Positions 37,823 to 39,433 of a stretch of DNA of 64,000 bases are shown here, one piece after another (the stretch's first letter is position 1; each line of letters opens with the position of its first letter). Both the position numbers and the translations under genes were made by a program. The notes beneath the pieces were generated by a model. It had not been told where the DNA came from, searched no databases, and was given only the letters and a program-made list of their open reading frames with translations. Source of the DNA: Dehalococcoidales bacterium (GTDB lineage Bacteria; Chloroflexota; Dehalococcoidia; Dehalococcoidales; RBG-16-60-22); assembly GCA_050014095.1 (NCBI GenBank), contig JBEKDZ010000001.1, forward strand, positions 142,560 through 206,559. Direction: 5' to 3'.

Positions 37823-37851
37823 TTGAAAATTACATATTACAGATGTATACT
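37823..37851 (+). promoter_or_regulatory. candidate promoter of the TcmP/DUF5131 pair
   Basis: TTGAAA, a 17-nt spacer, then TATACT. ATG 37862 follows only 10 nt later with no SD, so the mRNA may be nearly leaderless. Confidence 0.45.
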
Positions 37852-37861
37852 CTCAATCAAG

Positions 37862-38699
37862 ATGGTGTTAAAAATTTGATGAAATAGGTTACTGGTCTGA
37901 AATAAAATTATCAATTATTGAAAAGTACTCTTCAGCTTATACAAAAGCGTTTTCAGGTGCCAATTATCATTATCTTCATCACGTCTATATAGATGGTTAC
38001 GCAGGTTCCGGTACACACATATCAAAAACGACTAAAAAAGAAATACGTGGAAGTCCGCAGATTGCACTAGACACTAAACCTCCTTTTAAAGAGTTTTATT
38101 TTATTGATATTAATGGGGACAAAGTAGCTGAATTAAATAAAATAACAGCAAACCGGCCTGAGGCCCATATCTTAGAAGGTGACTGCAACAAAAGACTACT
38201 AACAGATGTATTTCCGAAAGTTAAATGGGAAGACTACCGAAGAGGGCTCTGCTTACTTGATCCATATGGTTTACACTTGAATTGGGAAGTGATCAAAACT
38301 GCGGGGCAAATGAAGAGCATTGAGATATTCTTAAATTTTCCCTTGATGGACATGAACCGAAATGTTTTTTGGAGACATCCAGAAAAAGTTGACCCTGCAG
38401 ACATAAAACGTATGGATTCTTTTTGGGGAGATAAATCTTGGAGAGAGGTTGTATATTACCAAACTCCAAATCTTTTTGGAGAAGCTATAGACAAGAAAGA
38501 AGATAATAGAACGATAGCACTAGCCTTTCAGAAACGGCTTAAAGATGTAGCAAAATTCAAATTTGTCCCAGACCCAATACCTATGCGTAATTCTATCAGG
38601 AATATTGTGTATTATCTATTTTTTGCTTCTAATAATAAAACAGGAGAAAATATTGCAAAATACATCTTTACTAAATATCGTGATCGAGGGATGAGATAA
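37862..38699 (+). CDS. tcmP: three-Cys-motif partner protein TcmP-like (RsmD-like methyltransferase fold), start disrupted by a 1-nt frameshift in an A5 run
   Basis: The frame is open from 37872 (KFDEIGYWSEIKLSIIEKY...IDGYAGSGTH...LLDPYG) with no ATG/GTG/TTG before 38277. ATG 37862 reads MVLKI then stops. Removing one A at 37870-37874 fuses them to MVLKFDEIGYW. Confidence 0.7.
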
Positions 38700-39433
38700 T
38701 GTCATTATCCACCGCCATTGAATGGACAGACTCTACATGGAATCCTGTGACAGGCTGCACAAAAGTAAGTTCAGGGTGCATGAACTGCTATGCAGAACGT
38801 TTGGCATTACGTTTACAGGCTATGGGAAATCCAAGTTATAAAAATGGCTTCTCTGTAACTTTACATGAAGACGCACTAACTCTCCCATTAAAATGGAAAA
38901 AACCACAGACGATATTTGTTAATTCAATGAGTGATTTATTCCATGAGAATATCCCCCTAGAATTTATCTTACGCGTGTTCGATATTATGCGCCGCGCGGA
39001 TTGGCATTGTTTTCAGATACTGACTAAAAGGTCAGAAAGAATGTTAGAATTGAGTCCGCGACTGCCTTGGGTATCAAATATCTGGATGGGTATAACAGTA
39101 GAAGCAGAAAATTACATGTATCGTATTGAACACCTTAAAGGAACTGGCGCGGCGGTTAAATTCTTATCCCTTGAACCGCTTCTTAGCCCCATCAATAATC
39201 TCTCTCTAGCCGGAATAGATTGGGTTATTGTTGGTGGAGAATCCGGTCCAAATGCCAGACCAATGAAAAAAGACTGGGTTGTTGATATTAGAAATCAATG
39301 CCAAAATAAAAACGTACCATTTTTCTTTAAACAGTGGGGTGGGATTAACAAGAAAAAGGCAGGCAGAGAACTCGACGGGCGTATATGGAGTGAAATACCA
39401 TCTCTTTTACCCAACGCTCAATTATCTTTTTAA
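38699..39433 (+). CDS. DUF5131 (phage Gp37/Gp68) family three-Cys-motif protein
   Basis: [27 protein letters not shown] (Cx6Cx2C), [12 protein letters not shown] and FFFKQWGG. The start overlaps the tcmP stop (TAATG). Confidence 0.9.
   Translation: [244 protein letters not shown]

Follow-up and report, generated by a model that had tools for sequence, protein, structure and literature searches.

A TcmP–DUF5131 pair downstream of uvrB

The stretch of DNA analysed here, called the window in what follows, comprises 64,000 nucleotides (nt) from a Dehalococcoidales bacterium (GenBank assembly GCA_050014095.1, contig JBEKDZ010000001.1). Between uvrB and degV it contains an AT-rich islet with two adjacent reading frames, one for the protein known as TcmP and one for a three-Cys protein of the DUF5131 family (Table 1). 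The TcmP frame, of 275 codons plus a stop (38697-38699), matches TIGR04474 over 262 of the 263 model positions (190.6 bits, E = 4.8e-56, cut-off 53). Read from the TAA at 37869-37871 onwards it translates as KFDEIGYWSEIKL...YIDGYAGSGTH...FYFIDINGDKVAELNKI...LCLLDPYG...RDRGMR*. The following open reading frame (ORF), intact and encoding 244 residues, scores 336.8 bits against Pfam entry PF07505 (E = 9.7e-101, threshold 28.9) and also matches phrog_2045 (E = 3.4e-96). The TcmP stop and the DUF5131 start codon (38699-38701) share one base, as TAATG, and a Shine-Dalgarno-like GAGGG lies 9-13 nt 5' of that start. The GC content is 35-42% over about 37.75-40.7 kb compared with 55-60% in uvrB, and the 38-40 kb bin, at 0.385, is the minimum among all 2-kb bins of the window. 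An earlier reading of the same letters, referred to here as the original prediction, had named both proteins from the quoted motifs and pointed out the TAATG overlap and the AT-rich composition, and on each of these points the present analysis agrees with it.

The pairing of TcmP with DUF5131 was defined by TIGRFAMs. PADLOC models it in two forms, PDC-M41 with a short TcmP and PDC-M30 with a long one, which have one DUF5131 family, FAM_00989, in common. Both are among 145 'untested phage defence candidates' that came from 'guilt-by-embedding' within BREX, DISARM, type I restriction-modification (R-M) and Hma systems (bioRxiv 10.1101/2024.01.29.577857). Using the PADLOC hidden Markov models (HMMs), the window TcmP matches PDC-M41A (E = 5.5e-70) and its neighbour matches both PDC-M41B (E = 1.2e-119) and PDC-M30B (E = 4.7e-117). 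Both component HMMs of PDC-M41 are thus matched by genes that are adjacent in the window, and the TIGR04474 and PF07505 scores lie far above their cut-offs. Gene order, overlapping stop and start, and the three-Cys motif are the same as in the PADLOC pair, from which the window copy differs in that its TcmP gene is frameshifted at codon 4/5. The locus is a TcmP–DUF5131 module of the short-TcmP type, PDC-M41, a kind already known and flagged as a defence candidate. The other two genes of the islet, for a 53-residue protein and a GerE/LuxR-type regulator, are context and lie outside the conserved pair.

Table 1. Features of the TcmP–DUF5131 locus, in window coordinates
Feature	Position	Strand	Remarks
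AT-rich islet	37750..40700		TcmP, DUF5131, 53-residue ORF (39684-39845), GerE/LuxR-type regulator (39867-40607)
TcmP cassette	37794..38693	+	No nucleotide similarity to syntenic loci of close relatives
Promoter-like site TTGAAA-17-TATACT	37823..37851	+	Ends 10 nt 5' of ATG 37862
True TcmP start and 5-codon dead-end frame MVLKI*	37862..37879	+	A5 run 37870-37874 with 1-nt insertion
TcmP reading frame, no start of its own	37872..38699	+	TIGR04474, PDC-M41A, AlphaFold2 model, RlmJ match
Motif I YIDGYAGSG (Y39-G47), predicted SAM-binding loop	37986..38012	+	Aligns with RlmJ YLDTHAGAG
Motif IV LLDPYG (D130-P131-Y132-G133)	38253..38270	+	Aligns with RlmJ 164-DPPY
TAATG stop/start overlap	38697..38701	+	TcmP/DUF5131 junction
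DUF5131 gene, intact	38699..39433	+	PF07505, PDC-M41B, PDC-M30B, phrog_2045
Three-Cys motif C20-x6-C27-x2-C30, then Y31	38756..38788	+	Alignment of 37 members

TcmP and the rRNA methyltransferase RlmJ

An AlphaFold2 model of TcmP made with 93 homologues is of high quality (predicted local distance difference test, pLDDT, 92.7; predicted template-modelling score, pTM, 0.90). Compared with the PDB by Foldseek, it retrieves Escherichia coli RlmJ first (6qdx, E = 8.5e-7, TM 0.56), then the RlmJ homologue LPL1258 and thereafter other class I S-adenosylmethionine (SAM) methyltransferases; among viral structures only generic methyltransferases were found. Searches of PDB sequences with single TcmP or DUF5131 sequences, or with profiles of their close homologues, gave nothing useful. 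Only a diverse TcmP profile (80 sequences at 30-65% identity, apart from one 93% relative) reached RlmJ by sequence alone, with E = 5e-4. The predicted structure and this profile match show TcmP to be a protein of the class I SAM-methyltransferase fold that is nearest to RlmJ, an rRNA methyltransferase producing N6-methyladenine (m6A). The original prediction had proposed such a fold, with kinship to RsmD-like or N6/N4 enzymes; the fold stands, but RlmJ is closer than either of the groups then suggested.

The likeness extends to the active site. In RlmJ, SAM is held by H42, S100, E118, D143 and D164, and catalysis depends on both D164 and K18, the latter in the N-terminal motif X (PMC3814359). 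The profile alignment places YiDaFagaG of TcmP on YLDTHAGAG of RlmJ, GSP on GSP, fiD on ltE, gDcn on aDGf and LDP-Yg on IDPPYe, thereby pairing F43 with H42, S61 with S100, D79 with E118, D104 with D143 and D130 with D164. K18 falls outside both aligned stretches, and K12 of TcmP would be its counterpart by position. Among the 80 diverse TcmPs, conservation reaches at least 90% at K12, D41, G47, S61, D104, D130 and P131, and is below 90% at D79 and F43. On this alignment TcmP is shown to retain putative counterparts of the cofactor-binding and catalytic residues of RlmJ.

RlmJ (DUF519; PDB 4blu and 6qdx), which methylates A2030 of E. coli 23S rRNA, thus has in common with TcmP a Rossmann-like methyltransferase fold (TM 0.50-0.56), a conserved Lys in an N-terminal helix, the YxDxxAGxG and GSP motifs, an acidic residue after strand β2, the Asp of motif III and the Asp-Pro of motif IV. 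The two differ in several respects. Identity is about 11%, TcmP has no hit to the Pfam RlmJ entry, and in place of the DPPY of RlmJ and of DNA m6A methyltransferases, its motif IV reads DPYG in the short form and DPWG in the long. The helical subdomain of RlmJ (residues 47-98; PMC3814359) is missing, so that motif I and GSP are separated by about 13 residues in TcmP and about 55 in RlmJ. Furthermore, RlmJ is a solitary housekeeping gene whereas TcmP, which moves horizontally, always comes with DUF5131. TcmP would be RlmJ-like in its workings, yet it is not a member of the RlmJ family.

DUF5131 and the radical-SAM superfamily

An alignment of 37 diverse DUF5131 members from cellular, plasmid and phage sources shows C20, C27, C30 and Y31 of the window protein to be invariant, as are D79, K110, E159, G179, E181, C201, K211 and W213. 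The window protein has the spacing Cx6Cx2C, while one divergent member, from an Enterocloster phage, has the canonical Cx3Cx2C. The window protein also matches the model for 'radical SAM mobile pair protein A' (TIGR04471), with E = 3.9e-22 but at 78.8 bits, below the cut-off of 355.

In the SFLD/RadicalSAM.org classification DUF5131 forms a radical-SAM subgroup, Megacluster-5-2, with MJ0683-like proteins on one side of it and spore photoproduct lyase on the other (PMC9477430). Its neighbours in sequence space are the SplB-like radical-SAM proteins, among them spore photoproduct lyase itself and the MJ0683, PA0069 and Rv2578c families. The Cys motifs of DUF5131 and an SplB-like protein can be aligned, as NPxxGC...GCxxCYA, despite the difference in spacing between Cx6Cx2C and Cx3Cx2C, and in one Nostoc plasmid a protein of SplB-like type takes the place of DUF5131 next to TcmP (see below). 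The structure model of DUF5131 is poor (pLDDT 68, with residues 1-77, including the Cys region, below 50). In this partial model the conserved charged residues would mostly be placed at the termini of predicted β-strands or close to them, an arrangement seen in TIM-barrel enzymes. By classification DUF5131 is a member of the radical-SAM superfamily, to which the structure model adds no confirmation. The suggestion in the original prediction of a Cys-cluster enzyme is consistent with the invariant C20, C27 and C30 and with the subgroup listing, but the structure model is too poor to bear on it.

The pair in cellular genomes and phages

Scanning GTDB species representatives with TcmP returned 514 relatives, and gene neighbourhoods were taken from the best 80 of these. 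At 52-73% amino-acid identity, the 80 span some ten phyla: Chloroflexota, Planctomycetota, Acidobacteriota, Verrucomicrobiota, Nitrospirota, Desulfobacterota, Elusimicrobia, Bacteroidota, Actinobacteria and Betaproteobacteria. DUF5131 adjoins TcmP in all 80 loci, in line with the regular partnership claimed for the two families by the original prediction, and is downstream on the same strand in 78, of which 49 have a 1-nt overlap of stop and start (TAATG or TGATG). There is no conserved third gene in the 80 loci, and the only ones with uvrB at position -2 are seven loci of Dehalococcoidia. With the TcmP family as a whole forming 4,591 clusters at 50% identity (E up to 1e-3), the pair must be considered very common. 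It is shown to spread horizontally: a foreign origin follows from the composition of the islet, so different from that of uvrB, together with the high identity maintained across phyla.

Among 146 immediate neighbours of the pair the commonest Pfam matches are ResIII (five) and N6_N4_Mtase (three), and matches to type III and type I R-M components and to SspH are also present. Annotated plasmid records show the surroundings of individual loci. On a Leisingera plasmid the pair lies beside two Abi genes. On plasmid pC052_C of Nostoc sp. C052 (locus L101, 5817-7879) TcmP is divergent from a bona fide Radical_SAM protein (PF04055), of PA0069/Rv2578c type and 'mobile pair B'-like, which replaces DUF5131 as its partner; the locus adjoins the BREX genes pglZ, brxL and brxA and a CHAT-TPR gene. 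On pSymA of Sinorhizobium meliloti 1021 (L098, 4361-10022) the TcmP gene SMa2243 begins about 80 nt after the 845-codon hna helicase gene, and an ORF of 415 residues separates it from a reverse-strand DUF5131 gene. hna is a defence gene on pSymA, and a joint increase of hna and tcmP is reported for a nolR+ strain (PMC12445080).

In phages the two genes are far from equally represented, DUF5131 being found in 181 phage records and TcmP, for which there is no PHROG match, in five. In the Gordonia phages Bakery and Matteo (L091, 2421-4975; L096, 482-3439) DUF5131 overlaps or closely follows a gene for a C5-cytosine DNA methylase, within replication and recombination modules. These arrangements resemble the TcmP pair in that DUF5131 is next to a nucleic-acid methyltransferase gene, overlapping it in Bakery, and differ from it in that the partner is a Dcm-type methylase (PF00145) and the phage DUF5131 is longer, at about 310-325 residues. 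In Gordonia phage ThankyouJordi (L094, 2492-4359) the 'methyltransferase' gp42 is a long TcmP, convergent with the DUF5131 protein gp41, and the two are flanked by the integrase and the immunity repressor, a region that in actinophages often houses defence genes expressed from the prophage.

A fusion of TcmP with DUF5131 would have spoken for a physical complex, but two candidates for one were rejected. P0322 (552 residues) is a head-to-tail duplicate of one TcmP and P0300 (391 residues) runs into a low-complexity Arg/Pro/Gly-rich tail, so that each looks like an artefact of assembly or of a frameshift.

Exchange of TcmP at the uvrB–degV site

Close relatives of the window have the pair at the same site, the gene order in L001 and L004-L006 being uvrB-[partner]-DUF5131-53 aa-GerE-degV-...-rpsP-atpCD. 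When the window is compared with L001 and L004 by BLASTN, nucleotide identity is about 94% up to position 37793 and again from 38694 onwards, with nothing in between; over L001 and L004-L006 it is about 92-94%. DUF5131 at the uvrB–degV site of these relatives is 95-97% identical to that of the window. Their partner gene, by contrast, encodes a protein of 373 residues, likewise a TcmP by TIGR04474 (E = 1.9e-59), which matches PDC-M30A, carries a C-terminal 'GMT-like wHTH' domain and has DPWG as its motif IV. By hhalign, the homology between the short and long forms of TcmP extends over 268 columns (98.8% probability, E = 6e-17).

Synonymous divergence (dS) in the two adjacent genes gives the same picture. 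Between L001 and L004, both with long TcmP, dS is 0.87 for TcmP and 0.31 for the adjacent DUF5131; between the window and L007, both with short TcmP, it is 0.27 and 1.37, respectively. The adjacent genes are thus 3-5 fold apart, and in both directions. From this mosaic of dS values we conclude that recombination breaks repeatedly at the TcmP|DUF5131 junction. Purifying selection on DUF5131 is strong, the ratio of non-synonymous to synonymous divergence (dN/dS, omega) being 0.04-0.13. These comparisons show cassette exchange of TcmP next to a DUF5131 that hardly changes: the one has the behaviour of a specificity module that can be replaced, the other that of a constant core.

A frameshift in the window copy of TcmP

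The original prediction described a translationally coupled two-gene module and missed that the TcmP frame has no start codon of its own. The frame is closed on its 5' side by the TAA at 37869-37871, and the earliest ATG, GTG or TTG within it is TTG 38277, which is 3' of both methyltransferase motifs. Homologous proteins begin MALVFDEIGYW, MALKFDEIGYW or MVIKFDEIGYW. After ATG 37862 the window reads GTG TTA AAA ATT TGA, giving MVLKI*, but with four instead of five A residues at 37870-37874 the product would begin MVLKFDEIGYW. Since the shorter run restores a start that matches those of the homologues, the gene has a 1-nt (+1) insertion at codon 4/5 and its true start at ATG 37862. An intact relative, L007, whose protein P0001 is 93% identical, reads ATGGCGCTGGTATTTGATGAA at the insertion point, and L008 is intact as well. 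The window TcmP is not found in the protein database, although its DUF5131 is.

The remainder of the frame is clean, with a dN/dS of 0.12 relative to L007, and the lesion must therefore be recent or represent a reversible 'off' state. In all probability the window copy of TcmP is turned off or lost its activity very recently and hence, owing to the frameshift, the module in this genome is probably off. We consider it improbable that the A5 run is instead a sequencing or assembly error, or that a +1 slip of tRNA-Lys on A-AAA-A gets round it, so that TcmP would be made after all. The otherwise intact frame, with its 93% identity to P0001 and low omega, would fit such an explanation, as would the position of the defect in a homopolymer, and a +1 slip at AAA-A, if we may speculate directly from the sequence, would yield exactly MVLKFDEIGYW. 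However, the A5 run is common to three assemblies: over 37781-38720, contig k141_122374 of ENA ERZ27250059 and the Logan assembly SRR7028477 match the window with 100% identity, run included, and encode an identical DUF5131 (loci L009 and L010). A run of five bases is also short for Illumina-type errors, transcriptional slippage or efficient frameshifting, and the same frameshift arrangement is seen in no homologue.

Upstream of the true start is a promoter-like site with 10 of 12 matches, the joint top score in a scan whose total number of sites was no higher than in shuffled sequence. The site is conserved in L007, and its position suggests a putative near-leaderless mRNA.

Possible functions of the pair

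The interpretation that we favour, with some reserve, is that the two enzymes form a nucleic-acid module whose probable target is DNA and which serves in conflicts of hosts with phages or mobile elements, TcmP recognising the target and DUF5131 acting on it as a radical-SAM-type enzyme. TcmP would be the variable, target-recognising subunit, binding nucleic acid, most likely DNA, flipping out a base and probably methylating it. DUF5131 would be the conserved catalytic partner, a radical-SAM superfamily enzyme with a [4Fe-4S] cluster and with kinship to SplB-like 'DNA photolyases', and would act on the same site. Together the pair may install or process a nucleic-acid modification used in these conflicts. 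The link to DNA and to conflict draws on the C5 methylase neighbours in phages, the Gordonia prophage, the Abi, BREX and Hna neighbours, the PADLOC listing and a count of PADLOC models matched by neighbouring proteins, 147 for immediate neighbours against 60 at positions ±7/8, which, being of models rather than proteins and given without statistics, is suggestive and crude, not proof. Were this interpretation true, a methyltransferase-like targeting subunit combined with radical chemistry on DNA would constitute a new route of DNA modification or a new defence mechanism. The complete RlmJ-like SAM and catalytic site, the conserved DUF5131 and the exchanged TcmP make it a testable hypothesis.

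Several observations weigh against it. The immediate neighbours of the pair are mostly housekeeping singletons. The islet is syntenic in close relatives, and a search of the window found no integrase, flanking repeats or nearby tRNA around it, the sole tRNA being at 20.9 kb. For DUF5131, and in contrast to SplB-like proteins, there is no PF04055 Radical_SAM hit at E-values up to 10 in 74 members. Its profile gives no PDB hit, its poor model matches only generic TIM barrels (E = 1.5e-3 or worse), and its hhalign comparison with a true radical-SAM protein is weak (probability 27%), although the Cys motifs line up. C201, the fourth invariant Cys and a further difference from SplB-like proteins, could complete a four-Cys cluster, which would be unfit for radical-SAM chemistry. 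The substrate of RlmJ, to which TcmP is structurally closest, is RNA and not DNA, and the mitomycin C induction of Rv2734 and the adjacency to uvrB, both considered below, favour a role in repair. Finally, literature searches found no biochemical or genetic study of TcmP or DUF5131, in agreement with the statement in the original prediction that neither protein has an assigned biochemical function. The same note's proposal, of a module on mobile DNA that modifies nucleic acid or tells self from non-self, is no more than plausible: the PDC-M41 listing and some of the neighbours speak for it, but the islet shows no sign of a mobile element. Similarly, the survey of defence neighbourhoods that it called for yielded the larger number of PADLOC models close to the pair, but mostly housekeeping genes.

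A more specific form of the favoured interpretation is possible, though it must be regarded as doubtful. Here the exchangeable, m6A-methyltransferase-like subunit would flip a base and the radical-SAM-type enzyme would alter that base or its methyl group, leading to hypermodification of, or damage to, DNA in defence, with TcmP alleles being swapped like specificity subunits. Comparison with R-M systems and orphan methyltransferases is instructive in this context. They too have a methyltransferase fold of m6A type in AT-rich, horizontally acquired DNA, and in R-M systems a specificity-like subunit is exchanged by recombination, as TcmP is. The TcmP pair differs from them in having no recognisable nuclease, no restriction endonuclease or R-M methyltransferase model of Pfam or PADLOC being matched, and in that loss of TcmP with retention of DUF5131 is tolerated here.

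Of the alternatives, the one that fares best, unlikely as we consider it, is a DNA-repair module in which DUF5131 reverses lesions in the manner of spore photoproduct lyase and TcmP recognises them by flipping bases. The position of DUF5131 next to spore photoproduct lyase and the MJ0683-like 'DNA photolyase' proteins in radical-SAM sequence space (PMC9477430) would fit with this, as would the location of the pair directly after uvrB, here and in seven Dehalococcoidia loci, the RecA and uracil-DNA-glycosylase-like genes among its neighbours, and the phage copies in replication and recombination modules. In Mycobacterium tuberculosis, moreover, mitomycin C reportedly induces Rv2734 as part of a cluster that includes Rv2735c, recX and recA (PMC5057432). 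Rv2734 is a putative member of DUF5131, named as a homologue of phiE125 gp37 (DUF5131) by a note in AF447491. The adjacency to uvrB is limited to one lineage, with unrelated contexts elsewhere, and both the foreign composition and the high identity across phyla sit uneasily with repair. So, too, does the placement of one copy in a prophage immunity region and of others beside Abi, BREX or Hna genes. Swapping of TcmP-type cassettes at a single site and a mosaic of dS values would not be expected of a repair enzyme.

It is less probable still that the pair modifies RNA, TcmP methylating an adenine of rRNA or tRNA and DUF5131 adding a radical-based modification, with toxin or antibiotic resistance as one conceivable outcome. 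TcmP does find its best match, in structure and in sequence, in the 23S rRNA m6A2030 methyltransferase RlmJ, and Cfr and RlmN, radical-SAM RNA methylases that confer resistance, provide a precedent. Against this, TcmP is without the helical subdomain of RlmJ, D41 and G60 being only about 19 residues apart, and long TcmP has a wHTH domain, of a kind that typically binds DNA. In phages the partners of DUF5131 genes are C5 DNA methylases, and the active site of RlmJ itself resembles those of DNA m6A methyltransferases (PMC3814359). A sporadic, horizontal distribution and the swapping of TcmP alleles are, in addition, ill-suited to a conserved RNA target.

Finally, a toxin–antidote or R-M logic, with DUF5131 as a harmful effector (a nuclease or DNA-damaging enzyme) and TcmP as a protective, self-marking methyltransferase, would account for two genes encoding a methyltransferase-fold protein and a second enzyme, for the association with defence islands and for R-M genes among some neighbours, but can be practically dismissed, since TcmP is frameshifted here beside an intact DUF5131 with its own Shine-Dalgarno-like element, when loss of an antidote should be lethal, since phage records with DUF5131 so outnumber those with TcmP, and since DUF5131 is under strong purifying selection and matches no nuclease family.

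Other features of the locus and window

The GerE/LuxR-type regulator of the islet has a receiver-like N-terminal region. It is present in L001, L004 and L009 and absent from L007; together with the 53-residue ORF it is kept in relatives with either type of TcmP and missing from L007. On an Acetobacter plasmid a LuxR-family gene is directly 3' of the local pair, which may be coincidence.

On the other side of the pair, a Lys-rich ORF of 52 residues (37644-37802) overlaps the 3' end of uvrB and terminates exactly at the upstream boundary of the cassette. It has no Pfam match, and ORFs of 47-54 residues are found at the equivalent position in L001, L004, L007 and L009.

The second most AT-rich part of the window, at 31.75-34.2 kb (GC 0.39-0.44), contains a pair of ORFs of 93 and 97 residues, 11 nt apart (33223-33809), whose arrangement resembles that of a type II toxin–antitoxin pair, no family search having been made. 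Preceding it are about 1.4 kb of AT-rich sequence (31750-33180) with no ORF of at least 90 residues on either strand, which could be non-coding or decayed DNA.

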